NCBI GenBank assembly: GCA_028823175.1
Contig: JAPKBZ010000002.1
Location: forward strand, 6,571-70,570
DNA: 64,000 bases
Origin: Myxococcota bacterium
Lineage (GTDB): Bacteria; Myxococcota_A; UBA9160; UBA4427
Reading direction: 5' to 3'
The position numbers were made by a program, and so were the translations under genes. Shown piece by piece: positions 46,548 to 62,747 of the stretch. The notes beneath the pieces were generated by a model. It was not told where the DNA came from, did not search any database, and was given only the letters and a program-made list of their open reading frames with translations. How positions within the stretch are numbered: the first letter of the stretch is position 1; every line of letters starts with the position of its first letter.

Positions 46548-47561
46548 TTGCCTATGCCCATGCCTGACAACACACAGATCCGAATAGCGGCCCTCGCCTT
46601 CGCTATGGCCGGCTTCTGGGCCCTTTGGGCGACGGGCTGCGGCGAGTCCCTGGCGGAGCCCGCCCCGACCCAGGCGACCTCGGCACCCGAACGCACGAGC
46701 CTGGTTTCCCTGGCTCGCCTGGAACCCTCGAGCCGGGTTGTGAATGTCGCGGCCGCCTCCAACGACGTCATCCAGCAGATCCTCGTCCAGGACGGGAGCC
46801 ACGTGCTCACCGACCAGGTATTGGTCCTGCTCGGAAGCTACTCGCTCCGCGCCGCCGAACTCGAAGCCGCGCGCATCGACCTGGAGCGCGCACGTCTCGA
46901 ACCCCTGGAGGTCGACGCCCAGCTCGCCCGGGTGCGTGCCATCGAAGCCGAACTCGCTTACGCCCTGGAGGAGGTCACGAGCCAGGAGGGGCTGAGCCGA
47001 AAAGGGTTCAGCGCGGGTAAGGAATTTCGGGATGCCCAGCTCCAGGTACGGAGGGCCGAAGAGCATCTCCACGAAGCCCGTGCCCTCCTGGAACGGAAAA
47101 CCGCCGACGTGGACCTCGTCCTCCGAGAAGCCCAGAACCAGGTCACCCAGGCCGAGGCGCGCATGGGAAGCACCATGATCAAGTCCCCCATCACGGGCCG
47201 CGTCCTGCGGATCCTGAGGAAGCAGGGCGAGCGCGTCGACATGAACCCGGTGTTGAGCATCGGGGACACCAACCACATGGTGGCCGTCGCCGAGGTCCAC
47301 GCCAACGAAATCCGATTGGTGGAAGTGGGGCAGCGGGCAACCTTCACGAGCCCTGCTTTGCCCAGTTCCCTGGAAGGAAATGTCTCTTCGGTCGGCGAAA
47401 TGATCTTCAGCAATAGCGTGACCGGCGAGGACCCGACCGCGCCCCGGGGATTGCGCATCGTCCAGGTACGGGTTCTCCTCGAAAAGAACGAGTTGGCCGA
47501 AAGGATGACCAACCTCGAGGGCCAGCTCCGTATTCACCTGGAGCCAGCCGAAGCGCCTTGA
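46548..47561 (+). CDS. HlyD/DevB-family ABC-exporter membrane fusion (periplasmic adaptor) lipoprotein
   Basis: Lipobox WATGC, VSLARLEP..., a coiled-coil segment and a beta-barrel domain. ATGs at 46554 and 46560 are alternative starts. Confidence 0.8.
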   Translation: MPMPMPDNTQIRIAALAFAMAGFWALWATGCGESLAEPAPTQATSAPERTSLVSLARLEPSSRVVNVAAASNDVIQQILVQDGSHVLTDQVLVLLGSYSLRAAELEAARIDLERARLEPLEVDAQLARVRAIEAELAYALEEVTSQEGLSRKGFSAGKEFRDAQLQVRRAEEHLHEARALLERKTADVDLVLREAQNQVTQAEARMGSTMIKSPITGRVLRILRKQGERVDMNPVLSIGDTNHMVAVAEVHANEIRLVEVGQRATFTSPALPSSLEGNVSSVGEMIFSNSVTGEDPTAPRGLRIVQVRVLLEKNELAERMTNLEGQLRIHLEPAEAP

Positions 47562-48742
47562 GCCCCGTATCCGCGTACACACGACGGAGCGGCCCCTCGC
47601 GACCCGTCCCCTTCTCCCTGCAGTTGGTGTCGCACAAGAAGACCCGTACTGCGGTGGCCGCCGCCGGAATCGGCTTCGCGATTCTGGTCATGTTCGTCCA
47701 ACTCGGTTTCTACGGCGGAGTGCTGAATACGGCGCTCGCCGTTTCGGGCCGCTTCGACGCCGATATCGTTTTGATCTCGCCGCGCTTTGCCTACTTGGGA
47801 GCCACCGGAACGATCCCCGCCAGCCGTCTCTATCAGGCCCAAACCCAGCCCGAGGTCGTCGAAACGACGCCCATCTACTTCCGCTACGCGAACTGGCGAG
47901 ACCCGGTCAACGGTGCAAATTGTCGGCTTTTTGCCATCGGCTTCCCCATCGCCGCCGAGACGGACACTTCGCCGCTGATCCTGCCGGGGGTCACCGAGCA
48001 ATTCGAGGCCCTGAAACCCACCAGCACCGTCCTCCTGGATCGCATGACCCGAGATAAATGCGGTCCACTAGACCCGGAGGGCTGGGTCGAGGTGCGCGAC
48101 CAGCGCGCCCAGGTCGTTGGCGACTTTAAGCTCGGCGTCGGTTTTCTCGCCGACGGGGCGATGCTCATGAGCGACGACACCTTCTCTCGCTTCTTCGCCA
48201 ACCACCCCCTGGACTCGCCCCACCTCGGATTGGTTCGGCTCGCACCGGGCAGCGATGTCGACGAAGTCGCTGAGGCCCTCAAACAAACTCTTCCCAAGGA
48301 CGTCCGAGTCATCACGCAGAGCGAATTAAACGATCTACAGACTCGGCATTGGGTGGAGAACACCGCCGTCGGCGACATCTTCGGGATGGGCACCCTGGCC
48401 GGCTTCCTCGTGGGGTTGGTCGTGCTCTTTCAGATTCTCTCCACCGATATTCGCAATCACCTCCCCCTCTACGCGACACTCCGCGCCATGGGGTATTCCC
48501 GGAGGCAGTTGACCCGCTATGTCATCGAGCAGGCTTGGATCTATGCCCTGCTCGGATTCGGCCCGGCTCTTTTTCTCAGCCTCGGCGCCTTCCCCCTGAT
48601 CCAGGATGCCACCAACCTGCCGATCTACATGACCCCAAGCCTCGTATTGGGCATCCTGGCCCTCAGCCTCACCATGTGTTCCCTATCGGCGCTGATCTCG
48701 GCTCGCCGGCTTCAGCGAGCTGACCCGGCGGAGCTCTTCTGA
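47558..48742 (+). CDS. DevC/MacB-type ABC exporter permease (FtsX domain), paralog 1
   Basis: N-terminal TM, large periplasmic domain, 3 C-terminal TMs, LYATLRAMGYS motif. It overlaps the devB-like stop. Confidence 0.8.
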   Translation: MSPVSAYTRRSGPSRPVPFSLQLVSHKKTRTAVAAAGIGFAILVMFVQLGFYGGVLNTALAVSGRFDADIVLISPRFAYLGATGTIPASRLYQAQTQPEVVETTPIYFRYANWRDPVNGANCRLFAIGFPIAAETDTSPLILPGVTEQFEALKPTSTVLLDRMTRDKCGPLDPEGWVEVRDQRAQVVGDFKLGVGFLADGAMLMSDDTFSRFFANHPLDSPHLGLVRLAPGSDVDEVAEALKQTLPKDVRVITQSELNDLQTRHWVENTAVGDIFGMGTLAGFLVGLVVLFQILSTDIRNHLPLYATLRAMGYSRRQLTRYVIEQAWIYALLGFGPALFLSLGAFPLIQDATNLPIYMTPSLVLGILALSLTMCSLSALISARRLQRADPAELF

Positions 48743-49881
48743 TGCTCAAACTCGTGAGCGCAGTCGTTTTTTCGTTCAGGCTCCTGGTCCACGAACGGGG
48801 GCGCCTGATCGCGTCGGTGGGCGGAGTCACCTTCGCCCTACTCCTGATGCTGCTCCAAATCGGTTTCCGAAACGCCCTCCTGGACAGCGCGATCCAGTTG
48901 CTCCGTCAACTCGACGCAGATGTCCTCGTAATCAACAAGGAGAAGGACCCCTTCCTTGCCATGAACAGAATGCACAACGAGAGGCTCTACCAGGCCCTCT
49001 CCGTCGAGGGAGTCGAAAGCGCTTCCCCCCTCTGGGTCGCTCTCGAGCAGTGGAAGAATCTGGAGGAGCAGACCCTCCACCCGATTCGGGTGATCGGCTT
49101 CAATCCGAACAAGCCAACCTTTCTGATCGATGAGGTAAACGAAAACGTCGACAAACTCAATCGCATCGGGACGGCCTTCCTGGACTCGCACTCCCGAGAT
49201 TCCTACGGCGAATTGCCCGATGACGTCGCACAGGTGAACCTCAGAGAAATCAAAATCGTCGGCAGCTTTCCCTTGGGCACGGATTTCGAAGTCGATGGCA
49301 GCCTTATCGTCTCGGACGAAACCTTCTTCGAGCTGACACGCCAGAGCCCCGACTGGATCGAGATTGCTCTACTCAGGCTCAAGCCCGGTGCCGATATGGA
49401 TCTGGTCCTCGAGAATCTCGCCCTAATACTTCCCGGCGATGTTCGAGCCTTCTCGAAAGCCCAACTGATCGATCGCGACCTCGACTACTGGCGGACGGGA
49501 ACCCCCATTAGTGTCATCTTGCTCGTAGGCGTTGTCCTTGGCTTCGCGGTCGGAGTCGTCATCTGTTATCAGATTCTCTACACCGAAGTTCTCGACCATC
49601 TCTCCGAATTCGCGACGCTCAAGGCCATGGGCTACGGAAACGACTACATCCAAATCGTCGTCATGGTCGAATCCGTGCTGCTTTCCGCCCTTGGCTTCGT
49701 GCCTTCTATACTCCTGGGGTCGCTCATGCTGGCAGCCCTTGGCTGGAGCAGTGGGCTGCCGGCGAGTGTGGGCCTGGGCGATGCTCTCAATGTGGGCCTC
49801 CTCGCCGTCAGCATGTGCACGTTGGCGGGAACGCTCGCGCTGCGCAAAGTCCGCACTCTCGAGCCTGCGGAACTCTTCTAA
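48742..49881 (+). CDS. DevC/MacB-type ABC exporter permease (FtsX domain), paralog 2
   Basis: Same architecture as paralog 1, with FATLKAMGYG motif. TGATG overlap with paralog 1. Confidence 0.8.
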   Translation: MLKLVSAVVFSFRLLVHERGRLIASVGGVTFALLLMLLQIGFRNALLDSAIQLLRQLDADVLVINKEKDPFLAMNRMHNERLYQALSVEGVESASPLWVALEQWKNLEEQTLHPIRVIGFNPNKPTFLIDEVNENVDKLNRIGTAFLDSHSRDSYGELPDDVAQVNLREIKIVGSFPLGTDFEVDGSLIVSDETFFELTRQSPDWIEIALLRLKPGADMDLVLENLALILPGDVRAFSKAQLIDRDLDYWRTGTPISVILLVGVVLGFAVGVVICYQILYTEVLDHLSEFATLKAMGYGNDYIQIVVMVESVLLSALGFVPSILLGSLMLAALGWSSGLPASVGLGDALNVGLLAVSMCTLAGTLALRKVRTLEPAELF

Positions 49882-49957
49882 CTCGAGAGGAAGCCCGGGC
49901 GAAACGAATGTATCCTCAACCCGAAAAATTACGACCGAGTGAGCCCCTGGAGCGCCG

Positions 49958-50659
49958 ATGACTTCCGCAACGAACAAGGCCATTGAAATCGCAGGGCTCG
50001 ACTACTCGTTTGGAACGGACGAAACCGCCAAACAGGTTCTCTTCGAGATCGAGCTCGCCCTCGAACCCGGAGAGTTCGCGATCATGACCGGGCCTTCGGG
50101 CTCGGGCAAGACAACCTTGCTCTCTCTGGTGGGCGCCCTGCGCCGGCCCCAGGGCGGGAAACTGAATGTTCTGGGTCACGACCTCAATACCCTCGAGAGC
50201 CCCGAACTCGAAGGCTATCGCCAGCAACTCGGTTTCATTTTCCAGCTCCACAATCTCTTCCCCGCACTCACTGCCTTCCAGAGCGTCCAAATGGCCGGAG
50301 ACCTTCACCCCGAAGCCGCCGGTCAAATGGACGACCGGATTCGCGCACTCCTGACCCAGCTCGGGCTGGGGGAACGACTCGATTATCGGCCCCACCAACT
50401 CTCGGGCGGCCAGCGGCAGCGAGTCGCCATCGCCCGGGCTCTGGTACACCGCCCGGCCCTCGTCCTCGCCGACGAACCCACGGCTGCCCTCGACGGGGAA
50501 AATACCAAGATCGTGCTCGGGTTACTCGCCGAGCTTGCTCATGAGCGAGGCACCACGGTACTCATGGTTACCCAAGATAACCGAGTCTTTGAGTCGGCGG
50601 ACCGACTCATCAATCTCGTCGATGGTCGGCTGGACTCCGACGTGCGGCTCTCTGAATGA
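49958..50659 (+). CDS. ABC transporter ATP-binding protein (DevA/MacB-NBD-like)
   Basis: Walker [10 protein letters not shown], signature [15 protein letters not shown], Walker B LVLADEPT. Confidence 0.9.
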
Positions 50660-50780
50660 GCCCTGACGAATCAGAACCCAAGATCCCACCATTTCCCACG
50701 ACCGATCCCTCGGCTACGGTCAAAGCCCTGGGGCGCCGCGCGCGGCCGGACCGGCGACTGGGCGAGGAAATTTTTAGCAG

Positions 50781-52370
50781 ATGAGCGAAAAAAACATCCT
50801 GGCGATCGACGTAGGCACGTCCGAAATCAAGGTTGCCCTGGTTTCTCATGCGGGCCAAGTCCGCGACTGCGCCCGCAGCACCCTTGAGGTGATCTACCCC
50901 GAGGCGGGCTGGGCCGAACAGGACCCCTACGCGTGGTGGAGTGCAATCTCGTCCGCCGCCCGGGAACTCTGGAGCCAATCCAGCTTCGACCCGGCGCAAG
51001 TCTCCGCCGTCGTCTTTTCGTGCCAGATGTTCGGAGTTCTGCCCGTGGACTCCGCCGGCAAGCCCCTGATGAACGCCATGATCTGGCTGGACACGCGCTC
51101 CCGGGAACAGGCTCGGGAGATAACCTCGGGGCAGCCCCGAGTCGCAGGCTACGGACTCCCCCGACTCATCAAGTGGCTACGCGCCACCAATGGCGTGCCC
51201 AGCCTGGCCGGACGCGACACGATTTCAAAATTCATATGGCTACGCGACGAAAGGCCCGAGTTGTGGGAGCAGACCGATTGTCTGCTCGACGTAAAGGACT
51301 ATCTCGTCATGCGCTGCACCGGGCGAGCAACGACCACCTACGATCTGGCCAGCGGCGGGTGGCTCTTCAAGACTCGCAAAGGAGAACTCGGTTGGTCGTC
51401 CGAGATTCTTCGCATGCTGGATCTCGACACCAAGCGCTTCCCCGAAGTTCTGCCCTCCACCGAGATCGTGGGCGACCTCGGTGCCGAGGCCGCCTCGGAT
51501 CTCGGCTTGCCCGCGGGCGTTCCCGTGGTCGCCGGCGCCGGCGACGTCCCCTCGTGCGCCGTGGGTTCGGGGGCCGTCAAGGACGGCGAGGTGCATATCT
51601 ACCTGGGCACCAGTTCGTGGGTCGCAACCCACCTCGACGACCGAGCCGTCAATCCCTTCGCGGCCACGGGCACCCTATGCGCGGCGGAGTATGGCAAATA
51701 CATCCTGATTGCCACGCAAGAGACAGCCGGCGCCTCGATGGAATGGGTGCGCAAAAAAATTCTCGGCGGCGAGACCGACTACGACACGATCAACCGCCTA
51801 GTCGAAAATTGCGAGGCGGGCGCGGGCGGCGTGTTCTTCTTCCCCTGGCTCATGGGCGAACGCGTCCCGGTGGACGATGCCACCCTACGAGGTGGGTTCG
51901 TCAACCTCTCTCTCGATCACGACCGGGGGCACCTGCTGCGCGCGGTTTTCGAGGGCGTGGCGTACAACAACCTGTGGGCCCTGGGCGTCGTGGAAAAGCT
52001 CCTTCGAGCTCCCGTCCCCAGCGTTCGGATCACCGGCGGAGGCGCCCAAAGCGATATCTGGTGCCAGATCATGGCCGATGTCCTCGACAAAAGGGTCGAG
52101 CGGGTGGCCAACCCACAATTCTGCGGCGTTCGCGGCGCGGCGCTGATCGCCCTTCGCGCCCTGGGCGAAATCGACCAACTCGACGCCATGAGCGATCTCG
52201 TCGAAGTCACGGATACCTTCGAACCCAATCCAGAGAATCGTGAACTCTACGCCAGCCGCTACCGAAGCTTTCTGGATTACTACAAGCGCAACCGAACCTG
52301 GTTCCGCTCGCTCAACGGGGACCTTGCGGCGGGGGATCCCGATCCAGGCGAGCAGCCTGGCTCAAGGTGA
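50781..52370 (+). CDS. FGGY-family carbohydrate kinase (xylulokinase/glycerol-kinase-like)
   Basis: ILAIDVGTSEIKVALV phosphate-1 motif, later GAGDVPSCAVGSG and GGGAQSDIWCQIMADV motifs. Confidence 0.85.
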   Translation: MSEKNILAIDVGTSEIKVALVSHAGQVRDCARSTLEVIYPEAGWAEQDPYAWWSAISSAARELWSQSSFDPAQVSAVVFSCQMFGVLPVDSAGKPLMNAMIWLDTRSREQAREITSGQPRVAGYGLPRLIKWLRATNGVPSLAGRDTISKFIWLRDERPELWEQTDCLLDVKDYLVMRCTGRATTTYDLASGGWLFKTRKGELGWSSEILRMLDLDTKRFPEVLPSTEIVGDLGAEAASDLGLPAGVPVVAGAGDVPSCAVGSGAVKDGEVHIYLGTSSWVATHLDDRAVNPFAATGTLCAAEYGKYILIATQETAGASMEWVRKKILGGETDYDTINRLVENCEAGAGGVFFFPWLMGERVPVDDATLRGGFVNLSLDHDRGHLLRAVFEGVAYNNLWALGVVEKLLRAPVPSVRITGGGAQSDIWCQIMADVLDKRVERVANPQFCGVRGAALIALRALGEIDQLDAMSDLVEVTDTFEPNPENRELYASRYRSFLDYYKRNRTWFRSLNGDLAAGDPDPGEQPGSR

Positions 52371-53061
52371 GCCCGACGGCCCCGAGGAACATCAGGCCGA
52401 CGTAGATCGCAATGCCGAGCAGGATCCACTCCAGCCCTCCGAGCCACCCGCCCAGGGCTATGGCGAAGACGTAGACGAACTCGAGGCCGACCACCGCCAT
52501 CAGGAGACGATCGGTGGGGCTGAGCCGCTCGGGAATCTCGCTGCGGAAATACGTGGCATCCCGGCTTTGCAGGCTGAAATTGTCGCGAGTCTGGCGATTG
52601 AGGAGCAAGAGCACCGCGAGCCCCAGGGAGAGCGCGACGGCGTGGCCGCCCCAGATGCCCCCGCCCTGACCATCCACAAGGAGTCCGAGCGAGAATAAGA
52701 GCAGGCACCAAAAGCTCATATCGATGGTGCCGTCGAGAATGGCGCCCAAGCGGCTCGTTCGGCCCAGGGTGCGCGCCATGTTGCCATCCACGCAGTCCAT
52801 CACATGGTAAAGAAAGCCGAGGCCCGCGACTCCGAGATAGGCGTGCTCTCCCCCCCAATAGGCGACCGCGGGAAGGCTGAGCGCGATGACCAGGGAGAAG
52901 CTCGTCATCACGAGCACGGGAACTCCCAACCACAGAAAGGGCAACGCGACCCAGAAGGAAATCGGGCGGTAGATGAGGTAGCAGGGAAAATCACCCTGCA
53001 TCTCGGCCCAAGCCTTATCGGGTCCGTAGGAAGCCTTCACGTCGGCGAGTGTGTAGCGCAC
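52312..53061 (-). CDS. CDP-alcohol phosphatidyltransferase family protein (candidate CMP-AEP/CDP-alcohol : lipid transferase)
   Basis: Complete D-x2-DG-x2-AR-x8-G-x3-D-x3-D motif in MDCVDGNMARTLGRTSRLGAILDGTIDM. Multi-TM protein. Start proposed at GTG 53061, 8 nt after GGGAGGAGGG (track start 53091). Last gene of the phosphonate operon. Confidence 0.8.
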   Translation of the reverse strand: MRYTLADVKASYGPDKAWAEMQGDFPCYLIYRPISFWVALPFLWLGVPVLVMTSFSLVIALSLPAVAYWGGEHAYLGVAGLGFLYHVMDCVDGNMARTLGRTSRLGAILDGTIDMSFWCLLLFSLGLLVDGQGGGIWGGHAVALSLGLAVLLLLNRQTRDNFSLQSRDATYFRSEIPERLSPTDRLLMAVVGLEFVYVFAIALGGWLGGLEWILLGIAIYVGLMFLGAVGLTLSQAARLDRDPPPQGPR

Positions 53062-53098
53062 GGGGCTATCCCTCCTCCCCCAGCCTATCACCCTCGGA

Positions 53099-54013
53099 TC
53101 AGCCCGAGGTGAGTTCCAGAAAACCGTAGAAGACCGGCGTTACGAAGAAGAATGCGTCGTAAACGTCCAGCACGCCGCCCTGAGTGGGGACCAGGTTGCC
53201 GTAATCTTTGACCCCGGCCCGTCGTTTGAGCGACGAGGCGAAGAGGTCTCCGCCGAGCCCCGCCAAACCGATCAGGATTGCCGCACTCGCGACGCGCCAC
53301 GGGCCAAAACCCGGCACGGCAAAGGAAAAAGCGAAGCCCACAGCGACGGTCCCCAAGAGCCCACCCACGACGCCTTCGAGGGTTTTGTTGGGGCTCAATA
53401 CCGGGAAAATTTTACGCTTGCCGATCCCGCTCCCCACGAGGTAGGCGAAGACATCATTCGCCTCGACCAGGCCGTAGAAGAAGATCGCGTAGCCGAAGCC
53501 CTCTTCCCGCAGCCCGAGAGAAAGAAAGGCGGCGAGGCACAAGCCGGGGTAGACAAAACCGAGGCCCGTGCTGGTCACCCGGGCGAGAGGCGAATCCGGG
53601 GCAGCCCCGCGGGATGAAACGATCCAGCGCAGCGCCCCATAGAGCCCCAGGGCCACGGGAAAGAGCCAGCCGACGGCATCCGGCGACTGGTAAACGAAGA
53701 GAATCGACCCAAGCGCCAGGGCAATTCCCACCCCGGCCCACGGCTGCTCCCCGCCGACCTTCAGGGTGGTGTAGAGCTCCCGCGTGCAGAGCCCCGCGAG
53801 CAGCAGCACCCCGGCCAAGAGCCAACCGCCACCCAGGTAGGCCGGCCCCCAGATGCCGGCCAAGATGCCGACTTCGACGAGGAAGCGGGTCCCCATGCGG
53901 GACTGGGAAGCTGTCCGCCCCCGCACGGCCCACTGACCCAGCACCCAAGCCCCGGCGACCGCGAAGATGGCGCCGAGGGTCAAGAGCAGGCGAAGTGCGA
54001 TCTCCTGTTTCAA
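53099..54013 (-). CDS. divergent CdsA/CTP_transf_1 family protein (phosphatidate cytidylyltransferase-like)
   Basis: Polytopic membrane protein. The C-terminal SSLKRRAGVKDYGNLVPTQGGVLDVYD resembles the CdsA signature but reads Q for the HGG His and V for the D-[RK] basic residue. TTG start 1 nt after the phnW stop. Confidence 0.7.
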   Translation of the reverse strand: MKQEIALRLLLTLGAIFAVAGAWVLGQWAVRGRTASQSRMGTRFLVEVGILAGIWGPAYLGGGWLLAGVLLLAGLCTRELYTTLKVGGEQPWAGVGIALALGSILFVYQSPDAVGWLFPVALGLYGALRWIVSSRGAAPDSPLARVTSTGLGFVYPGLCLAAFLSLGLREEGFGYAIFFYGLVEANDVFAYLVGSGIGKRKIFPVLSPNKTLEGVVGGLLGTVAVGFAFSFAVPGFGPWRVASAAILIGLAGLGGDLFASSLKRRAGVKDYGNLVPTQGGVLDVYDAFFFVTPVFYGFLELTSG

Positions 54014-54014
54014 A

Positions 54015-55130
54015 TCAGGCGCTTCCCTTCACACTCTTGAGGTAGCGACCCAGCGCGGCAAGAAAGTTCTCGATATCTTGGGCATCGATCGCCCCCAGCA
54101 CCGCCAAGCGGAAGGTCGGCTGGGCTCCGGGCTTGCCGGGATAGATGGTAAAGCCTTCGGCATCCAGAGCGTCGTGCATGCGGTCGAAATCGTACCAGTC
54201 CTCGCTCGGCTCGTGGATCGCCACGAGGATCTGGCTCTGGTCCTCGTCCTCGAGGAGGAACTCGAAGCCCAATTGACGCAAGCCTGCCATCAGGGTCTGC
54301 ATACTCTCCTGGTAGCGCTTCTGGCGTGCGGGGATCCCCTCGGCATCGAGTTCGACAAGCGCTTGATGAAGCGCCGACACCACCTGGGGAGGCACCGTGA
54401 AGCGACTCTGGCCCGTCTTCTCGAGATGATCATGCTCGGCCACCAGATCCAACACGTAGCAGCGCCGGGGCGTCGGGCGAATCTCGTCGAGCAGTGCCCG
54501 GGTGGTGATAGCAATGCCCAGCCCCGCCATCCCCTGGACGCATTTGTTCGAGCTCGAGAAGAGCATGTCGACCGCGTGTTCACCCACCTCGATGGGCATC
54601 GCGGCAAAACTCGACATGGCATCGAGCATCAGCTTGAGACCGTGGGCGTGGGCTCTCTCCACCAGCGCGTCCAAGGGGTTAAGAAGACCCGAGCTCGTTT
54701 CGTGATGGATCGCGAAGAGGTGGGTCGCCCTCCCCTGCTCTTCGGCGAGTACGGCGTCGAGGGCCTCGAAGTCGATCCGCTGCCCCCATCCCAATTCTAC
54801 TCGCCGGTGGTCGATGCCGTGGGCGGCCGCGATTGCCGCCAACCGTGTCCCATAATCTCCGTTATCCAGAATCAGCACCCGGCCACCCGATGGGATCAGG
54901 CTGACCAGGCCCGCCTCGAGCACCGTGGTCCCACTGCCCACCACGGGGATCGCGACCACCTCGTCGGGATCACCCGCCAGGGCCGCGAGCCGCTGCCGAA
55001 CATCGGAATAGAGGTCACAAAAGCTGCGCTCCCGGGGACAGATATCGGAGATCACCAGAGCCGCCTTCACCGATTCGGTGGTCGTCGCCGGGCCTGGGTT
55101 GAGCAAGACGTTTCGCTTGGGCATATCCAT
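54015..55130 (-). CDS. phnW: 2-aminoethylphosphonate--pyruvate transaminase
   Basis: Start reassigned to ATG 55130 (GGAGA SD). LLNPGPATTTESV, SGTTVLEA, and the PLP-Lys motif SSSNKCVQG. Class V aminotransferase adjacent to ppd and pepM. Confidence 0.85.
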   Translation of the reverse strand: MDMPKRNVLLNPGPATTTESVKAALVISDICPRERSFCDLYSDVRQRLAALAGDPDEVVAIPVVGSGTTVLEAGLVSLIPSGGRVLILDNGDYGTRLAAIAAAHGIDHRRVELGWGQRIDFEALDAVLAEEQGRATHLFAIHHETSSGLLNPLDALVERAHAHGLKLMLDAMSSFAAMPIEVGEHAVDMLFSSSNKCVQGMAGLGIAITTRALLDEIRPTPRRCYVLDLVAEHDHLEKTGQSRFTVPPQVVSALHQALVELDAEGIPARQKRYQESMQTLMAGLRQLGFEFLLEDEDQSQILVAIHEPSEDWYDFDRMHDALDAEGFTIYPGKPGAQPTFRLAVLGAIDAQDIENFLAALGRYLKSVKGSA

Positions 55131-55146
55131 GCTTTTCTCCTGTGAT

Positions 55147-55941
55147 CTATTTCTGCGCGCCGAGTTCGCGGCTCGAGGGCGATGAGGAAGGAGCGGCCAC
55201 CTGCCCGGAAGCCCAGCGGGGCCACACCTCGTCTCGCACGCGGAGGTAGTGGTGTTCGTAGTCGACTTCGCCCCACAGCAGGTCGGGAACCAGGCGCAGG
55301 GCCACCGGGCGCTCGCCTGCGGCTTCGACCAGAGCGTCGGTCTCATACGCCATCTGGCCATGGCCGTTTTCATCGACAAAGCGCGCATAGGCCCTGGCCA
55401 TCGCCTGAGCCAGGGGATGAGAAATGCGCACGATGCCCACCAGTTCTCCGTAGACCTCGCCGAGTTCGGCGGGGTCCTTGGACATGCCCCGAAGGCAGCC
55501 GTCCGAGGCTTCGATCCAGACCTCATCGGTCGCACCGGTGGGGCCTGAAGCCAAAAGAATATCGGGCGCTTCGTCTTCCAGTAGGACATCGAGGGCACGC
55601 TCTTCGTAGAAGAGATCGCTCTCGAGAAGAAGGAAATCTTCATTCACCTCTTCGAGGGCGCGGGCCAGGGACGCCATGCTGCCGGTGGTGGCAAACTCGG
55701 CGTTCTCCACCACTTCCAAGCCGGCAAGCTCGGCGGCCAGGGCTTCGTAAGCCGACCCCATATGCCCCGAGACAATGACGATCCGCTCGATACCCCTTTC
55801 CTGGAGCAACCGAACCGAACGATGGATCAGCCCTTCCCCGCCGATTTCCACGAAGCCCTTCGGGCGATCCGAAAAAACATTCTTGAGGCGCGTTCCCATA
55901 CCCGCCGCCAGGATCACCGCCGCTCTCGGTCGGTTGGCCAT
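55147..55941 (-). CDS. LicC/PntC-like nucleotidyl(cytidylyl)transferase
   Basis: Canonical G-loop AVILAAGMGTRL...RPKGFVEI. ATG 55941 overlaps the ppd stop (TGATG). Confidence 0.8.
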   Translation of the reverse strand: MANRPRAAVILAAGMGTRLKNVFSDRPKGFVEIGGEGLIHRSVRLLQERGIERIVIVSGHMGSAYEALAAELAGLEVVENAEFATTGSMASLARALEEVNEDFLLLESDLFYEERALDVLLEDEAPDILLASGPTGATDEVWIEASDGCLRGMSKDPAELGEVYGELVGIVRISHPLAQAMARAYARFVDENGHGQMAYETDALVEAAGERPVALRLVPDLLWGEVDYEHHYLRVRDEVWPRWASGQVAAPSSSPSSRELGAQK

Positions 55942-57125
55942 CAACCCCGACCTGCCACGGCATCCCGAAAGGCCAGTGCGATCTCCTGGGGCGAAAGCGC
56001 CGGTCGCTCGAGGCCTTCGGCTTCCCGCTCATCCACCTCGATCTGGAGCAGAACCGGCCCCTGCCCGGCCTCGCTCGCGGCCCACTCCAGTGCGCCCTCG
56101 AGACCACCGGCTCCGCGACAATGGGCGGCCGCCCGGTAGCCGCAGGCCAAGGCGGCAGCCGGGAAATCGACATGGGGCGAAACTGTAAGCTGGCCTCCGG
56201 TGGAGGCGTAGGTTCCGTTATCGACCACCACGTGGGTAAAGGCCCGGGGCGCCAGGGCGCCGATGGTGGCAAGGCTGCCGAGACGCATGATCAGCGCTCC
56301 GTCTCCGTCGAGGACGTGGACGGGCCTGCCGCCGGGTGCACTGCGCTCGAGCCCCAGGGCGATTGCCGAGGCAAAGCCCATGGAACCCTGCATCGGAAAA
56401 TGTCGATCCACCATCCCGTGGGAGGAAACCTCTCGCGACATGAAGCCGGTGGTCGAGACCGCCAGGGCGTCGGGGTAGCGTTGCAGCCAAGCCCCCAGGG
56501 CTTCGGTTCGACTCGGCAACTCCCCGCCGCCGAACGCCCGGACCGAAGGGGTATCCGAAGCGGCTTGCCGGGCTAGGATCGGAGCCGCGCGGCGAGCCCC
56601 TTCGCCCTCCGAATCCGCGGAAGGCTTTTGGAAGAGGCCGCGCGGAACAATCAGCGCCGCGGGGCGACGCTCCTTGCGCATATAGGCCACCGCATCGCTG
56701 ACCGCGCGATCCAGATCTGTCTCTTCGCGGAGCACGGTAGCCGGAATGTCGAGCAACTCGAAGAGGCCCGGAGTCGCGGCGCCCATCGGATAGTGGTGGA
56801 CCGCATCCTTCTTACCCGGCTCACCCCGCCAGGAGACGATCATCAGCACAGGAATCTCATAGGGGATGGAGAGAGACGCCAAAGGGTTCACGGCGTTCCC
56901 CAGCCCCGAGTTCTGCATCATTGCGGCGCCCAGCCCACCTCCGAGCCACATGCCCGCGGCGGCAGAAACCGCCTCACCTTCAACCGAGGCCGGGATATAA
57001 TCGATCTCCGGCGATGCTTCGGCCTCGAGGGTCAGATGGTTGAGGATGGAGCAAGGAACGCCGGCAAGACCGGTGATTCCCGCGCCGAGCAGCGCGCGAA
57101 AGAGAACTTGCGGATCGAGGGGCAA
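55941..57125 (-). CDS. phosphonopyruvate decarboxylase (ThDP-dependent)
   Basis: ThDP motif GDGALIMRLGSLATIG...VVVDNGTYASTGGQ. About 390 aa, located between pepM and phnW. Confidence 0.85.
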   Translation of the reverse strand: MPLDPQVLFRALLGAGITGLAGVPCSILNHLTLEAEASPEIDYIPASVEGEAVSAAAGMWLGGGLGAAMMQNSGLGNAVNPLASLSIPYEIPVLMIVSWRGEPGKKDAVHHYPMGAATPGLFELLDIPATVLREETDLDRAVSDAVAYMRKERRPAALIVPRGLFQKPSADSEGEGARRAAPILARQAASDTPSVRAFGGGELPSRTEALGAWLQRYPDALAVSTTGFMSREVSSHGMVDRHFPMQGSMGFASAIALGLERSAPGGRPVHVLDGDGALIMRLGSLATIGALAPRAFTHVVVDNGTYASTGGQLTVSPHVDFPAAALACGYRAAAHCRGAGGLEGALEWAASEAGQGPVLLQIEVDEREAEGLERPALSPQEIALAFRDAVAGRG

Positions 57126-57167
57126 GGGTGGAGCCTCCGCTCGGCCGAAGTCGGCCTGGCAAGGGGT

Positions 57168-58820
57168 TTAGACGTCGCCGCTGCGAGCGACATCGGCCAG
57201 GCTGTTGATATCGATCCAGCCGCCATGGACATAAATGACCCGGATCGCGCGAGGGTCAGCCTGGGCGAGGTCGTCAAGCAGTGCGCACAGGTCGAGCTGG
57301 GCGCTCCCGGGCCGGGCCAGGGCCGAGTCCAGGGCCTCCTGGAGCGACTCCACCCCCTCACCGCGAACCCGAAGCATGCCGATCCACTCTCCGTGGGTCA
57401 TTTCCTCGGGCAAGCCCTCGGAGGCGGCTTCCAGCCAGTTCTCAGACTCGTCGTACGCGGTCGGAGCCGGCCCGGAAACCTTCACCCGGTCGACACTTCG
57501 ACCCGATTCCAGGAAGGAACGCGAGCCGTCCACCACCAGGGTGATGGGCGCGTCGGACGAGAGCAGCAGGTGCAGGATATAGCGTTTGAAAACCACATCG
57601 CCGTAGGCAATGATCGTGTCGCCCTTGATTGCTTCTCGAGCCACAGCAAGTGACCCCAGCTCTCCGTTCTCTTCCCAATCGGGGTTGTCAAAGAACTTCG
57701 CGCCCACTGGTGCGAGAGCCTCGGGCCGATAGCCGCGAACCACAGAAATATCCTTGATGCCCTCGGCGCGCATACTCTGCAGCATTTTCTCAATGGCCGG
57801 CATGCCCGAAACGGGAATCATCGCCTTGGGTCGATCCGCAGTGAGCTCATCGAGGCCCGCGCCCCGGGACGCAGCCAACACCAGAGCCGTCACTCCCGAC
57901 TCCTTGTGCAGATAAGTCTTTTCGCCCTCGAGCAAACCGTCGGCATCCTGAAGTCGAAAGACTTCCTTGACCGGAGCGATCGCGTCCTCGAGATCTCGGG
58001 CAGTTCCCTTTTCACCGATCTCGTTCGCAACCGACTGCATGGCGCCGATCCCCGCGCGCAGCATGTGGTTCGCCCAGATCACCAGGGAAATTCCCGCTTG
58101 GTCGAAGGCCTCCATGGGCGTGCTGTAGTAGGTGGTCGGCACGCAGACCACAGGGGCCCGGCCGCTCCACTTCGACATAAAATCCTGGACCTGACCGAAG
58201 GTGCGCTCCTTCGAGTGAATCAGGATCGCATCGGCACCTGCATCCACATAGCTCTCGGCGCGATCGATCGCCGCTGCCGTATCCAGACCGACGATCAAAG
58301 CCTCGGTCCGGGCCACCACGACAAAATCAGGATCCGTCTGAGCGTCCTTGCCCGCACGAAGCTTGCCCGCGAATTCTTCCACCGGTGCCAGAGATTGGCC
58401 CTCCGAGCGCAGGAAGGAGTTGGTCTTCGGGAAAATCTTGTCTTCGATGCAAACGCCGCCCACTCTGCGCAGGCAGAGCTTGCGAACCAGTTGCTGGAAA
58501 TGGCTGAACTGGCCGTAGCCCGTATCCCCGTCGAAGAGGATTGGGATATTCGCCCGGGCAGTGATGCTCTCGAGCACCTCCAGCACTTCAGTCATGGTGA
58601 GTTCACTGTTATCGCGCAGGCCCGCGGCGCAGGAGAGGGTCAGCGAACTCGCCCAAAGGCCCGAGAGACCGGCCTCCTCGACGATGGTGGCGGAGAGCGA
58701 GTTGTGGGCCTCCAGGATCTGCTCGACCCGGGGACTCTCCAAAAGCTTGCGAAGCTTCTTTGAATTACTTTCCAAGATGCTGTTCTGGTTCATTTTTTGA
58801 CCCCATATCCTTTTGATCAA
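57168..58820 (-). CDS. phosphoenolpyruvate mutase (PepM) fused to a C-terminal nucleotidyltransferase-like domain
   Basis: PepM-diagnostic EDKxxxxxNS (CIEDKIFPKTNSF) in the N-terminal ~300 aa (isocitrate-lyase/PEP-mutase fold). The C-terminal ~250 aa is NTP-transferase-like (ALVLAASRGAGLDELTADRPKAMIPV). MNQNS (58793) is an alternative start. Confidence 0.9.
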   Translation of the reverse strand: MIKRIWGQKMNQNSILESNSKKLRKLLESPRVEQILEAHNSLSATIVEEAGLSGLWASSLTLSCAAGLRDNSELTMTEVLEVLESITARANIPILFDGDTGYGQFSHFQQLVRKLCLRRVGGVCIEDKIFPKTNSFLRSEGQSLAPVEEFAGKLRAGKDAQTDPDFVVVARTEALIVGLDTAAAIDRAESYVDAGADAILIHSKERTFGQVQDFMSKWSGRAPVVCVPTTYYSTPMEAFDQAGISLVIWANHMLRAGIGAMQSVANEIGEKGTARDLEDAIAPVKEVFRLQDADGLLEGEKTYLHKESGVTALVLAASRGAGLDELTADRPKAMIPVSGMPAIEKMLQSMRAEGIKDISVVRGYRPEALAPVGAKFFDNPDWEENGELGSLAVAREAIKGDTIIAYGDVVFKRYILHLLLSSDAPITLVVDGSRSFLESGRSVDRVKVSGPAPTAYDESENWLEAASEGLPEEMTHGEWIGMLRVRGEGVESLQEALDSALARPGSAQLDLCALLDDLAQADPRAIRVIYVHGGWIDINSLADVARSGDV

Positions 58821-58906
58821 TCAAGTTTGATCCGGCCTACGAACTCAGTCGTTGCCGGAGGATAGCCCTGGCGACCCCGGTCGGTATCCCCCGACCCACC
58901 CCGCCC

Positions 58907-60061
58907 TCAAGTGTTCGTCGCGCCGCTCCCGTCGACCCGGATTCGCGCCGCGTTTTCGTAGACGCTTTCAATTCTCTCGGCAACGCTCGGCCACGAGTAT
59001 GCCAGCGCCGTTTTTCGCCCGGCCTCGCCCATTCGCTCGAGCACCACCCGATCGCGCAGCACCCGCCCCAGACCTTCGGCCAAGGCTTCGGAATTCGGCT
59101 CATCAACCAGCCAGCCATCGACGCCGTGGCTGACCACGTCCCGGTAGCCGGGGATCGCAAAGGCCACGGGTGGCCGCCCCGCGGCCATGGCCTCGAGCAG
59201 AACGATCCCCTGGCTCTCCTGACCTGTCGCCGGCGAACAAAAGACATCGCAACTCGCGTAGTAGCCCGCCATGTCTTCGGGTGCCGCATAACCCTCAAAC
59301 TCGATAGCGGTCCGGGCACCTTCGCTAAGTCCGGCGAGATCGGCCTCGACTTCACTGGCCTGGGCACCGACGACGACCAACCGCAATCCCTCGATATCGA
59401 CTCGAAGCCGATCGAAGGCTCGAAGCAGGATCGAAAGTCCCTTGCGTGGGTCGGCTCTCCCGACAAAAAGAATTTTAGGACGATCATCATCCAACCCGGG
59501 CAGGCGAGAAGCCTCGGGATGAAAGCGCGCCGTGTCCACACCATTGGGGATGATCTCGTAATCGCCCGGGAAATAGTGGGCGATGCTTCGGCGGGCTTCG
59601 GCGGAGACCGCGATCCGCGCATGCATGCGTTCCCACGCCGGTCGCGAGATCGCCCCGAGTCGGCGAAAAAGCGTCTCCCACAGGAACGACGGTTCAAAGT
59701 TCGCGTGAAAGGTACCCACCGTGGTGCACTCCGACGCGTAGAGAGCAGCCACGGCCAGAAAGGGTTCCATCGGCGCGTGAACATGAACCACGTCGAGGGC
59801 ATGGCGGCGCAAGGAGCGGCGAAAATTCAAGATTTCCCGGCCCAGCACCATCCGGGAAAGAGCACCGTTGCTCGTAAACTTGTATTCGAACCCGAGGCGC
59901 AAGACCTCGGGCCCCTCGTCCTTCCAACCGGGCGTGGCCGGTCCGGTGATGACCTTCACCTCGTGCCCCCGGGCCGAGAGTTCCTCGGCCTGGTGGTGGA
60001 CGTGCTCGGAGATACCGCCGGGCCATGGCCGGTAGTACTCCGTCACTATGCCAATTCGCAT
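58907..60061 (-). CDS. GT4-family glycosyltransferase, PimA-like
   Basis: Start reassigned to ATG 60061 (MRIGIVTEYYRPWPGGISEHV...). GT-B/GT4 C-terminal motif ESQGIVLLEAMAAGRP. It sits 86 nt upstream of pepM on the same strand. Confidence 0.85.
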   Translation of the reverse strand: MRIGIVTEYYRPWPGGISEHVHHQAEELSARGHEVKVITGPATPGWKDEGPEVLRLGFEYKFTSNGALSRMVLGREILNFRRSLRRHALDVVHVHAPMEPFLAVAALYASECTTVGTFHANFEPSFLWETLFRRLGAISRPAWERMHARIAVSAEARRSIAHYFPGDYEIIPNGVDTARFHPEASRLPGLDDDRPKILFVGRADPRKGLSILLRAFDRLRVDIEGLRLVVVGAQASEVEADLAGLSEGARTAIEFEGYAAPEDMAGYYASCDVFCSPATGQESQGIVLLEAMAAGRPPVAFAIPGYRDVVSHGVDGWLVDEPNSEALAEGLGRVLRDRVVLERMGEAGRKTALAYSWPSVAERIESVYENAARIRVDGSGATNT

Positions 60062-60522
60062 CTGGAATCCTCGCAGTGGATCGGGCGTTGCCCCACAGGC
60101 TTTTCCCAGCCTTCCCGGGCAGTGCCGCCTCGAGCCAGGGCCCAGCGGAGGAGGCACAACGCGTGGCCTGTCGGCGCAAACCAGGGCTCTCGCGCGGATT
60201 TTCGGGAGGCAAGCGTGGACGCCTCGGCGGCCATCGCGGCGGGAACCTATCACAGGCGGCGAGCCTCGGCCCTCGCCTAAAAACCACGTCACCCCGGGGA
60301 TACGCTGAGCCCCAGAGGCCGGCCTGGCACCCCCAGGTGCGTCCTAGAGCGCTGCGGTTACTCTCTCGGCATGCTCAATAGACCTATTTCTGAGCGGGGG
60401 ACGACCGAAGCCACCGTCCCCCGAGCCTCGAAGCACCGCCCCCCCGCCGGGAATCCGGCCGGCCAAGCGCGACAGACCGGTTCCCCTCGCCGCTCCCCGC
60501 GCCCGCCCGGGCCGCTTCCCCG

Positions 60523-61185
60523 ATGATCGACGAGCTCTACAAGGACCGGATGGATACGGGCTGGGACCGCGTCGGGCGCTGGGTCGCGCGCAGCGGCCTG
60601 ACCCCCAACGCGGTGACCTGGCTGGGGATGGCGCTCTGCTCCGGCAACGCCCTCGCGTTCTGCTTCCATCAGAACTTCTGGCTCTTCGGCCTGCTCGTCG
60701 GGCTGATCGAATTGCTCGACAACGTCGATGGGGCTGTGGCTCGGGTGACCGGGCTCAGCAGCCGGCGGGGCGCCTACCTCGACGCCACCACCGATCGCTA
60801 CAAGGATTCTCTGATCCTCCTGGCCATCGCCTACGTCACGGGTTTTTGGCTGCCCGCCACCCTGGCCATCACGGGCTCGCTGATCACCAGCTACGCGGCG
60901 GCGCGAGCCTCCATGCTCGGTGCCCACGGCGATGCGAGTGGAGGCCTGCCCGATCTCTTCGAACGACTCGAACGCACCGCGACGCTCTGCCTCGGACTCG
61001 TGGCCGCACCCTTCTGCCCGCCGATCCTGGGCCACGCACTGATGTGGTGGGTGCTCTACTTCGTCGCCGCGATGACGCATATCACTGGTTTTCAGCGCAT
61101 CGCACGAAGGCTCGGGGAACTCGACGTCCTCGACGCCGGGGATGCTTCAGCGACCGCGAACGACGACTCCGGGCAGACGCCCTAA
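60523..61185 (+). CDS. CDP-alcohol phosphatidyltransferase family protein (phosphatidylinositol-phosphate-synthase-like size and layout)
   Basis: LDNVDGAVARVTGLSSRRGAYLDATTDRYKD contains the DG-x2-AR...G-x3-D-x3-D motif. 220 aa with ~5-6 TM. Divergent from the GT4/pepM operon. Confidence 0.8.
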   Translation: MIDELYKDRMDTGWDRVGRWVARSGLTPNAVTWLGMALCSGNALAFCFHQNFWLFGLLVGLIELLDNVDGAVARVTGLSSRRGAYLDATTDRYKDSLILLAIAYVTGFWLPATLAITGSLITSYAAARASMLGAHGDASGGLPDLFERLERTATLCLGLVAAPFCPPILGHALMWWVLYFVAAMTHITGFQRIARRLGELDVLDAGDASATANDDSGQTP

Positions 61186-62747
61186 AGGGCTCCGCCGATC
61201 CGAGCCTCGAGCAGCGCCCGATTACTCGCATAATCGACCAGGGCTGCGAGCAGCATGCTCTCCGCCCGCACGAGTTCGGCGTCGGCGTCGGTGATATCCA
61301 GATTACTCGCCAGCCCCATCTCGAAACGCCCCCGGGCAATCTCGCCCTTATTGCGGGAGTTCTCGACTTGTAGGATCAGGCTCTTGAGCCGCTCGATTCC
61401 CTCGCGCAAGCGAATTTCCACAGCGCGCACCTCGAGCTCGATATCGCGCTTCTGGCGCACAAACTCTCGCCGAGTCTGGGCCCGCAAAGCGCGAAAACGC
61501 GACAGCCGCGATCGCGGCCCGACGTTCCCAATCGGGAAGTCGAAGGCGACGCCCGCGTTCCAATTCCAGCTCTTCCAGTCGAAACCCGGCTGAAAACCGC
61601 CGCGGGCCTCGAGATTCGGGAGGGTGTCGTTCTTGGCGACTCTGACCGCCAGCTCGGCCTTCTCGAGCTTCGCCCGCATCCGGGCCATTTCGGGTCGGTC
61701 CTCGAGGGCCCGAGCCACCCAATCATCGAGTTCGATTTCGAGGGGCTGAAAGGGAATCGTCAAATCCATCACATCCACTTGCATCTGGGCATCGAGTCCG
61801 ATGACCTTGCGCAGATCGTTTTGAGCAATCTCCAGATCCGCTCTTGCCGTGGCTAAACGCGCCTGGTTATTGGACTGGCTGATCTCGGCGCTATAGACGT
61901 CCACCTTGCTGACCCGGCCCGCCTCGAAGAGGGCATCCGACGCTCGGATCAGCTCGGCATCCCGGCCCAGGGCCTGCTCGATCACCTCGATCTGTCGCAG
62001 CGCCTGGATCACTCGGTAGTAGGCACTCTTCGTGCCCGCCGTGACGTTCAGGATTTCCGAGCGCAATTCGGCCCGGCTGATCTCCGTGTCGTATTCCGCA
62101 TCGAGAATCTCGCGACGGGCGACAAAGATGCGCCCGCCCCGCAGCAGGGGTTGGCGAATTTCGATCCCGAGCCCGCCGAGCTCGCTCATGCTTTCCAGAT
62201 TGGCCCCCGCACCAGTCGCGAGATCTTCGTTGTACTCGTTCTTGAATTCGCGCGAATAGCCGACCCCCAGCGCGACGCTCCCGCCCGTGGGCACCTGCTG
62301 ACGAAGCGTCGCCTGGGCCTGCTGGTTCTGAGTGAACTCGTCCTGTCGGTCCGAGTGGGCCCGCTTGGTTTCGAAGGCGGTGCCCTCAATGGCAAGAATC
62401 GGGTGAAATTTGGATCGCGCCCCGGTCACATCGCTCTCCCGGGCGTCGAGTTCGAGCGCGACGATCTGCAGGCCCAGATTATTCTCGAGGGAGGCTTTCA
62501 CGGCGCCCTCGAGGGTCAAGCCGAGGCGCTCGCGCACCAGCGGCGCTCCAACATCATCGCTTTGATCCAGAATCTGGCGGACAGCCTCGAGATCCAAATC
62601 GGAAATCGAGCCGACTTCAAGGGCGGGTAGCGGGCTCTCATCAGGCCGCGCGCCGACCCCCGCCGAGGGCGACAGCATCAACAACGCCGAAATCACGAGC
62701 AGGGTCCGTACCTGGCTCGCGATTCCGCAAGTTCGTATGCGCCCCAC
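61182..62747 (-). CDS. TolC-family outer-membrane efflux protein
   Basis: Two OEP repeats with long coiled helices. Start proposed at GTG 62747, 6 nt after GGAGAGG, which gives the signal peptide ...LLVISALLMLSPSAGVGA (track start 62837). Confidence 0.8.
   Translation of the reverse strand: MGRIRTCGIASQVRTLLVISALLMLSPSAGVGARPDESPLPALEVGSISDLDLEAVRQILDQSDDVGAPLVRERLGLTLEGAVKASLENNLGLQIVALELDARESDVTGARSKFHPILAIEGTAFETKRAHSDRQDEFTQNQQAQATLRQQVPTGGSVALGVGYSREFKNEYNEDLATGAGANLESMSELGGLGIEIRQPLLRGGRIFVARREILDAEYDTEISRAELRSEILNVTAGTKSAYYRVIQALRQIEVIEQALGRDAELIRASDALFEAGRVSKVDVYSAEISQSNNQARLATARADLEIAQNDLRKVIGLDAQMQVDVMDLTIPFQPLEIELDDWVARALEDRPEMARMRAKLEKAELAVRVAKNDTLPNLEARGGFQPGFDWKSWNWNAGVAFDFPIGNVGPRSRLSRFRALRAQTRREFVRQKRDIELEVRAVEIRLREGIERLKSLILQVENSRNKGEIARGRFEMGLASNLDITDADAELVRAESMLLAALVDYASNRALLEARIGGAL

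Follow-up and report, generated by a model that had tools for sequence, protein, structure and literature searches.

The 64,000-bp window analyzed here, from contig C130 of a metagenome-assembled genome (MAG) of 4.6 Mb in 235 contigs, carries a cluster of 14 genes, running from DevB to TolC over about 16 kb, in which exporter genes stand beside genes for lipid assembly and for 2-aminoethylphosphonate (AEP) biosynthesis. DNA of the window recurred in seawater and marine metagenomes, and the organism is a marine, uncultured Myxococcota lineage. The block behaves as a discrete unit that is inherited together and is bounded exactly by DevB and TolC. With a probability of roughly 0.55, it is one discrete cluster making a specialized envelope (glyco)phospholipid that is exported across both membranes, both the chemistry of this product and the substrate of the pump being predicted. 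The genes were identified by Pfam and NCBIfam scans, which confirmed the presence and position of every gene named in a preliminary description of this DNA:

46548–47561, plus strand: DevB, membrane-fusion (periplasmic adaptor) protein (TIGR02971, 168 bits, cut-off 129; HlyD_D23, HlyD_3)
47558–48742, plus strand: DevC1, MacB/FtsX-type ATP-binding cassette (ABC) permease with periplasmic core domain (FtsX, MacB_PCD; TIGR01185, 280 bits, cut-off 290)
48742–49881, plus strand: DevC2, second permease paralogue (TIGR01185, 322 bits, cut-off 290)
49958–50659, plus strand: DevA, ABC ATPase (ABC_tran; TIGR02982, 287 bits, cut-off 296)
50781–52370, plus strand: FGGY sugar/polyol kinase, XylB-like, cluster-specific (FGGY_N, FGGY_C; XylB model, 344 bits, cut-off 380)
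52312–53091, minus strand: CDP-OH 1, divergent CDP-alcohol phosphotransferase, candidate CMP-AEP transferase (PF01066, 31.7 bits)
53099–54013, minus strand: CdsA-like protein (CTP_transf_1), second CdsA paralogue, candidate CDP-diacylglycerol synthase (PF01148, 168 bits; TmCdsA 4q2g, E 1e-17)
54015–55130, minus strand: PhnW (AEPT), 2-aminoethylphosphonate:pyruvate aminotransferase (TIGR03301, 380 bits, cut-off 361)
55147–55944, minus strand: stand-alone PntC-type cytidylyltransferase of the CMP-AEP-forming type (6pd1 match)
55941–57125, minus strand: Ppd, phosphonopyruvate decarboxylase (TIGR03297, 333 bits, cut-off 312.5)
57168–58820, minus strand: PepM, phosphoenolpyruvate mutase with a C-terminal LicC-like nucleotidyltransferase (NTase) (TIGR02320, 340.3 bits, cut-off 319.55; NTP_transf_3, residues 312–421)
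58907–60061, minus strand: PimA-like GT4 glycosyltransferase (Glyco_transf_4, Glycos_transf_1; PimA 2gej)
60523–61185, plus strand: CDP-OH 2, CDP-alcohol phosphatidyltransferase resembling phosphatidylinositol phosphate (PIP) synthase, hereafter PIPS-like (PF01066; 6h5a, E 2e-12)
61182–62747, minus strand: TolC-family outer-membrane channel, cluster-specific (OEP domain in two stretches, 167 bits)

The decisive comparison for the unity and the boundaries of the cluster is with G207, a MAG of another family. There, GT4, PepM, Ppd, PntC, PhnW, CdsA, FGGY, DevA, DevC, DevB, CDP-OH 1, PIPS and TolC lie together in about 18.5 kb, arranged in three units: GT4-PepM-Ppd-PntC-PhnW-CdsA-FGGY; a sulfatase-family gene with CDP-OH 1 and DevB-DevC-DevA; and GNAT-PIPS-TolC. 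Operon partners were swapped between G207 and the window, genes that are split in one being joined in the other and vice versa. Over about 80 kb around the G207 cluster only cluster genes matched the window, the exceptions being two paralogue-level matches of 35–36%, and none of the genes flanking the cluster in the window was syntenic there. The view of the preliminary description that the whole block is one system was upheld as far as the block is a discrete unit from DevB to TolC, reshuffled yet kept together in G207; it failed where the exporter is tied to AEP, since G012 has the exporter but no phosphonate genes.

The phyletic pattern was compared across 41 relatives, with orthologue thresholds of at least 55% identity for DevC2 and at least 68% for cluster-type PepM. 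Orthologues of DevC2, FGGY and the CdsA-like protein occurred in the same 13 relatives, at one locus, and in none of the others. PIPS-like orthologues were confined to cluster genomes and were present in 12 of these 13, the contig of G004 ending before the gene; cluster-type PepM was likewise found in 12, the missing one being G012. The best match of TolC was the in-cluster copy in each of the genomes checked (G012, G023, and G207), and a search at E 1e-20 returned no TolC match in the cluster-less G010 and G013. The CdsA-like gene was present in 10 of 401 sampled Myxococcota. Because of the G207 comparison and this shared phyletic pattern, the grouping goes beyond chance.

The block was found in all six genomes of the same genus and in G008, G014, G019, G023, G024, and G260. 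Conservation of the block in relatives, for which the preliminary description had proposed a test, was observed in the family and in G207, except that CDP-OH 1, GT4, and PhnW are each missing from some loci. Within the family, gene order agrees over the entire 45-kb neighborhood with its upstream CoA island, G012 included, so that synteny at this level says little about unity.

FGGY, the CdsA-like protein, the PIPS-like transferase, DevC, and TolC are cluster-specific paralogues. The genome has a housekeeping CdsA copy on C234, which adjoins another CDP-OH gene, and a second FGGY gene on C18. Nine CDP-OH genes were counted in all, including another, slightly better-scoring PIPS-like gene on C144, and the cluster TolC is one of about nine OEP genes. 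A myo-inositol-1-phosphate synthase (MIPS) gene is located elsewhere in the genome and is common across the order.

In the window, the plus strand carries devB, devC1, devC2, devA, and the FGGY kinase gene. devC1 overlaps devB by 4 bp and devC2 by 1 bp; devA follows after 76 bp and the kinase gene after a further 121 bp. The minus strand carries GT4, PepM-NTase, Ppd, the stand-alone NTase, PhnW, the CdsA-like gene, and CDP-OH 1, with gaps of 86, 42, -4, 16, 1, and 7 bp once starts were corrected. CDP-OH 2 is a plus-strand gene; a 461-bp spacer separates it from GT4, which is transcribed in the opposite, divergent direction, and at its other end it converges with TolC, which it overlaps by 4 bp. 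An NMO/FabK-like gene with the orientation of TolC precedes it by 106 bp, so TolC is outside the Dev operon. There are at least four transcription units in the block, including two that converge, and this makes co-transcription of the whole block, for which the preliminary description had proposed a check, impossible. A promoter and terminator scan yielded only background levels. No clear island signature was seen, the GC content of the cluster (0.61–0.65) being slightly below that of its surroundings. The convergent overlap between FGGY (stop 52370) and CDP-OH 1 (stop 52312), earlier taken to leave no room for unrelated elements, is exactly 59 bp in the window and consists of two C-terminal tails, both poorly conserved; the overlap itself is not conserved, there being none in G005, while the CDP-OH 1 gene is absent in G002, G004, and G006.

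A natural variant separates the constant from the variable parts. G012, a complete genome in a single contig, keeps devB-C-C-A, FGGY, the CdsA-like gene, the PIPS-like gene, and TolC intact in the same collinear place, and is without PepM, Ppd, PntC, PhnW, GT4, and CDP-OH 1. CDP-OH 1 is absent from the locus in G002, G004, G006, and G012, GT4 in G002, G006, G012, and G024, and PhnW in the PepM-positive G014 and G024. The pump, TolC, FGGY, and the CdsA-like and PIPS-like genes form the invariant core, to which the phosphonate branch, GT4, and CDP-OH 1 are accessory. In a tree built from eight concatenated cluster proteins and rooted with G207, G012 branched basally within the clade of the family, beside the PepM-positive G014, and loss of the phosphonate genes in G012 is the parsimonious reading. 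The best explanation is that the AEP branch is ancestral but dispensable, the phosphonate being an optional branch. The loci of G024 and G014 (L016, L028) contain PepM, Ppd, and PntC without PhnW; either the aminotransferase is encoded elsewhere in these genomes, or the head group differs.

The putative pump is of the DevBCA/MacB type. DevB and DevC2 scored above the curated DevBCA cut-offs, and DevC1 and DevA slightly under them. The N-terminus of DevB has a hydrophobic segment ending in a lipobox-like ATGC, and the most likely start of TolC is GTG at 62747, followed by a signal-peptide-like N-terminus. DevC1 and DevC2 are about 30% identical to each other, and the presence of two unlike permeases recalls LolC/LolE. 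No DevC1 orthologue was found in G207, which has a single permease. Single-permease DevBCA paralogues in relatives had no lipid genes nearby. In genus g14 (G019, G260), devA adjoins devB with no permease between them (L019:13718-15341, L203:2554-4174); in G019, a devC1-devC2 pair lies on contig C15 (L027:9402-11680), with no other cluster gene detected nearby.

In cyanobacteria, DevBCA and the TolC homologue HgdD export heterocyst glycolipids, and DevBCA paralogues also handle drugs and iron-related substrates (PMC8277102). The Myxococcota cluster resembles the Anabaena DevBCA-HgdD system in having the DevB adaptor, an FtsX-type DevC and DevA in one operon, in a presumed need for a TolC-family channel, and in its adjoining lipid-biosynthesis genes. 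It differs in its two unlike DevC paralogues, in its DevA and DevC1 scores slightly under the NCBIfam cut-offs, in a TolC gene placed inside the cluster, and in its host, a myxobacterium. The neighboring chemistry is that of a polyketide glycolipid in Anabaena, as opposed to phospholipid and phosphonate here, where a lipid is the candidate substrate because the pump is inherited together with lipid enzymes and with a TolC specific to the cluster.

Among the lipid-assembly genes, the CdsA-like protein can be followed to the residue level. In TmCdsA, D144, K167, D219, K226, D246, and D249 are essential, mutation having removed at least 98% of activity (PMC4083444). The equivalents of all six are kept here (D187, K210, D256, K263, D283, and D286) and are invariant in the alignment, and for this reason the protein probably represents a distinct subfamily with liponucleotide synthase activity. 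All orthologues carry the signature PTQGGVLDVYD where the canonical form is PGHGG-x-LDR-x-D. The subfamily motif is P-T-[QH]-G-G-x-L-D-V-Y-D, with members (P0045–P0085) down to about 31% identity, one of which is labeled Vicinamibacteria. A search with the latter (P0071) against 301 genomes of the phylum of an Acidobacteria MAG gave no match and, lacking a positive control, is uninformative. A metagenome scan with the CdsA-like alignment returned mostly canonical gut CdsA, and only L119–L122 belonged to the subfamily. One distant member (L121:1-7200) lies among genes for a PhyH dioxygenase, a Stealth phosphotransferase, an acyl-AMP ligase, a PIPS-like transferase, and GT2; another (L120:588-2540) has a gene of the diacylglycerol kinase family immediately upstream. 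These two contexts, through the PIPS-like and diacylglycerol kinase genes, fit a lipid-anchor role.

CDP-OH 1 has the complete motif D-x2-DG-x2-AR...G-x3-D-x3-D from residue 99, invariant in 11 orthologues. A profile search of solved structures did not discriminate between enzymes with a CDP-alcohol donor (CPT1/CEPT1) and those with a CDP-DAG donor, CEPT1/CPT1, AF2299, and PIPS all being weak matches. The catalytic motif of CDP-OH 2 is likewise complete, at residue 66, and its best solved relatives are PIP synthases, 6h5a being the mycobacterial enzyme. In G002, G023, and G207, the gene immediately preceding the PIPS-like one encodes a GNAT protein of about 390–480 aa (Acetyltransf_9; L018:15750-17186, L015:3977-5170, L201:9767-10939), and a gap of GNAT size occurs at this place in G008, G019, G024, and G260; the window has no GNAT gene in the 461-bp spacer.

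The best solved relative of GT4 is PimA 2gej (E 1.6e-47, residues 74–460, near full length), and curated equivalog models gave no match. Its most likely start is ATG at 60061, the longest open reading frame (ORF) extending to 60292. For the FGGY kinase, the best solved relative is E. coli XylB 2itm. The PIPS-like and GT4 genes are divergently transcribed neighbors, and with PIP synthases and PimA as best solved relatives they recall the actinobacterial PgsA1 and PimA, which start phosphatidylinositol-mannoside synthesis. The Myxococcota pair differs in that the PIPS-like protein falls under both curated cut-offs, GT4 is missing in four cluster variants, there is no acyltransferase, and the host is Gram-negative.

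Among the phosphonate genes, PepM has the catalytic motif EDKxxxxxNS as EDKIFPKTNS at residue 126, and its fused NTase matched LicC 1jyk at E 3e-8. The stand-alone NTase matched the solved structure 6pd1 at E 2.3e-48 over residues 8–243; this structure is the NTase domain of Treponema denticola Tde1415, a characterized AEP cytidylyltransferase (PMC6697681). The alignment to that domain covers the whole length of the stand-alone protein. In Tde1415 the domain is fused to an aminotransferase, whereas the Myxococcota NTase is unfused and a second, LicC-like NTase is present on PepM instead. The most likely start of PhnW is ATG at 55130, preceded by AGGAG. The longest ORF for this gene (54015–55643, 542 aa) was rejected as a high-GC open-frame artefact, its roughly 170 extra codons being read out of frame across the NTase gene.

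A predicted cluster family is known of which the minus-strand operon represents a variant. As cited in Li and Horsman (2022; PMC8942020), Yu et al. (2013) described a "Group 1 phosphonolipid" or "Burkholderiales_CDP-OH" ppm cluster family, whose core of seven genes is given there as including a Ppm-PntC fusion, Ppd, AEPT, a second PntC, a CDP-OH transferase, and an alpha-ketoglutarate/Fe(II) oxygenase. Both operons combine a Ppm-NTase fusion, Ppd, AEPT/PhnW, a stand-alone second PntC, and a CDP-alcohol phosphotransferase, and in both the product is predicted. The oxygenase of the Group 1 core has no counterpart in the Myxococcota cluster: a Cupriavidus HalD-like oxygenase found no homologue in loci L030–L036, and Pfam scans of the window genes revealed no oxygenase. 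PepM of the window is 42–49% identical to members outside Myxococcota, and the CDP-OH enzymes match around the catalytic motif only, at 30% identity. The second lipid gene of the window encodes the CdsA-like protein, which showed no similarity to the ORF occupying this place in Cupriavidus. Group 1 has no conserved Dev, TolC, FGGY, PIPS, or PimA genes, and none of 73 PepM-NTase loci outside the lineage of the window had Dev, TolC, CdsA, or PIPS neighbors. In Cupriavidus sp. YR651, MacB-like and OEP genes lie directly upstream of the Group 1 cluster (L045:2899-6407); this was discarded as a second independent link between phosphonolipid genes and MacB/OEP, being a one-off that is absent from the other Cupriavidus, Pandoraea, and Ralstonia loci examined. 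The preliminary description knew of no system combining AEP biosynthesis with DevBCA/TolC, and literature searches found none either, but the AEP-lipid operon type itself was already published (PMC8942020).

Gene families, intact catalytic motifs, cluster-specific paralogy, and co-inheritance are established, and the pathway built on them is a proposal. In outline it would follow the earlier scheme, in which a head group is made, activated with CMP, attached to a lipid, given a sugar, and exported. PepM, Ppd, and PhnW would make AEP, which PntC would convert to CMP-AEP; plain AEP rather than 1-hydroxy-AEP is expected because there is no alpha-ketoglutarate/Fe(II) oxygenase. The second CdsA may supply a private pool of CDP-diacylglycerol, which the PIPS-like transferase would join to an alcohol phosphate, either inositol-1-phosphate from the MIPS encoded elsewhere or the product of the FGGY kinase. 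Such a combination of kinase, CdsA, and PIPS/PgsA-type enzyme would be analogous to glycerol kinase with PgsA, or to MIPS with PIPS. The PimA-like GT4 would add a hexose, and CDP-OH 1 would move AEP from CMP-AEP onto diacylglycerol or onto the glycolipid made by PIPS and GT4. DevB-C1-C2-A and the TolC of the cluster would then remove the product from the inner membrane and deliver it to the outer membrane or to the surface of the cell.

Several observations weigh against a dedicated lipid-export cluster. In G012, the pump and lipid core persist without phosphonate genes, so AEP is not the determinant of export; and since CDP-OH 1, GT4, and PhnW are each missing in some PepM-positive relatives, a single fixed pathway is too simple. 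The varied substrates of DevBCA paralogues mean that the family name does not fix the substrate of the pump. No flippase is encoded in the cluster, and in genus g14 the two devC genes are on another contig. The CdsA-like protein scored 76.6 bits on equivalog NF008635, below the cut-off of 385, and CDP-OH 2 is below the PIPS cut-offs (NF040950, 126.4 vs. 180; NF045883, 86.9 vs. 170). All cluster genomes may also represent one origin and one transfer, and hence few independent observations. An unlikely alternative is a mosaic whose modules (an AEP-phosphonolipid operon, a pair like that of phosphatidylinositol and its mannosides, a sugar kinase, and a general MacB-type pump with TolC) are independent and were brought together by descent or as a transferable island, with no common product. 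The collinearity of the whole 45-kb region in the family, CoA island included, would fit such a mosaic, as would the pump kept in G012 without phosphonate genes, the transcription of TolC with the NMO gene in the window, the varied substrates of DevBCA paralogues, and the single-permease DevBCA copies of relatives with no lipid genes nearby. However, G207 retains exactly the cluster genes and no flanking ones, its operons mix the supposed modules (CDP-OH 1 with DevBCA, FGGY with CdsA and PhnW, TolC with PIPS), and the components are all paralogues specific to the cluster that share one phyletic pattern.

Quite improbable is an end product other than an exported membrane lipid, with the lipid serving as an intermediate or donor from which AEP or polyol-phosphate would be transferred to a glycan, lipopolysaccharide, or polymer in the periplasm or at the surface, or with a soluble phosphonate secreted via Dev-TolC. 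The sulfatase/alkaline-phosphatase-superfamily gene directly upstream of CDP-OH 1 and DevBCA in G207 would suit this idea, as this superfamily includes head-group transferases; still, that gene matched arylsulfatase models only, and weakly, and the window is without sulfatase-type transferase, LicD, polymerase, or Wzx/Wzy genes. Two NTases and a kinase could also make a CDP-polyol, a distant CdsA-like context carries the glycan enzymes Stealth and GT2, and sulfatase-rich phosphonolipid clusters are on record (PMC8942020). Against all this, the CdsA and PIPS-like members of the invariant core are lipid-assembly enzymes. Within the reading of an exported envelope lipid, a more specific form can be proposed, which we consider unlikely as it stands: the product would be a bacterial counterpart of protozoan glycoinositol-phospholipids, an AEP-capped phosphatidyl-inositol/polyol glycolipid built by the private CdsA, PIPS, PimA, and CMP-AEP transferase and placed in the outer membrane by a LolCDE-like two-permease DevBCA with its own TolC. 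If true, this would be the first route across the envelope dedicated to exporting a phosphonolipid, and oceanic particulate phosphonate would have a concrete source.

Phosphonates account for much of the organic phosphorus in the sea, and with a marine host the product would be relevant to the question of which organisms make particulate phosphonate. About half of all pepM clusters predict bacterial phosphonolipids. According to Li and Horsman (2022; PMC8942020), the phosphonolipids of the two large, Burkholderia-dominated predicted groups are uncharacterized. The Myxococcota cluster is a compact unit coupling synthesis to a candidate exporter. New in this analysis are the natural deletion in G012, the rearranged copy in G207 that sets the boundaries, a phyletic profile specific to the cluster for each of the core genes, and the residue-level assignments to PntC, PimA, and TmCdsA. 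The natural variants offer a ready deletion series, G012 being without the phosphonate genes and G002, G004, and G006 without CDP-OH 1, while the PTQGGVLDVYD CdsA-like subfamily and the two-permease DevBCA provide new handles on specialized lipid assembly and transport.

The immediate surroundings of the cluster varied between genomes. In G207, the sulfatase/alkaline-phosphatase-superfamily gene (L201:7796-10327), which encodes 843 aa and abuts CDP-OH 1 and DevBCA on the same strand, has no counterpart in the window. The NMO/FabK-like gene next to TolC, located at 62854–63945 in the window with a divergent upstream neighbor, is conserved at that place in genus g1 and G260 and missing beside TolC in G012 and G207. 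At the other end, 176 bp separate devB in the window from the end of an amidohydrolase gene of like orientation; this gene is found beside devB across the family, but not in G207. The upstream CoA-thioester island and this amidohydrolase gene, which span window positions 18466–46371, are collinear with G012 (L206 and L025 compared).

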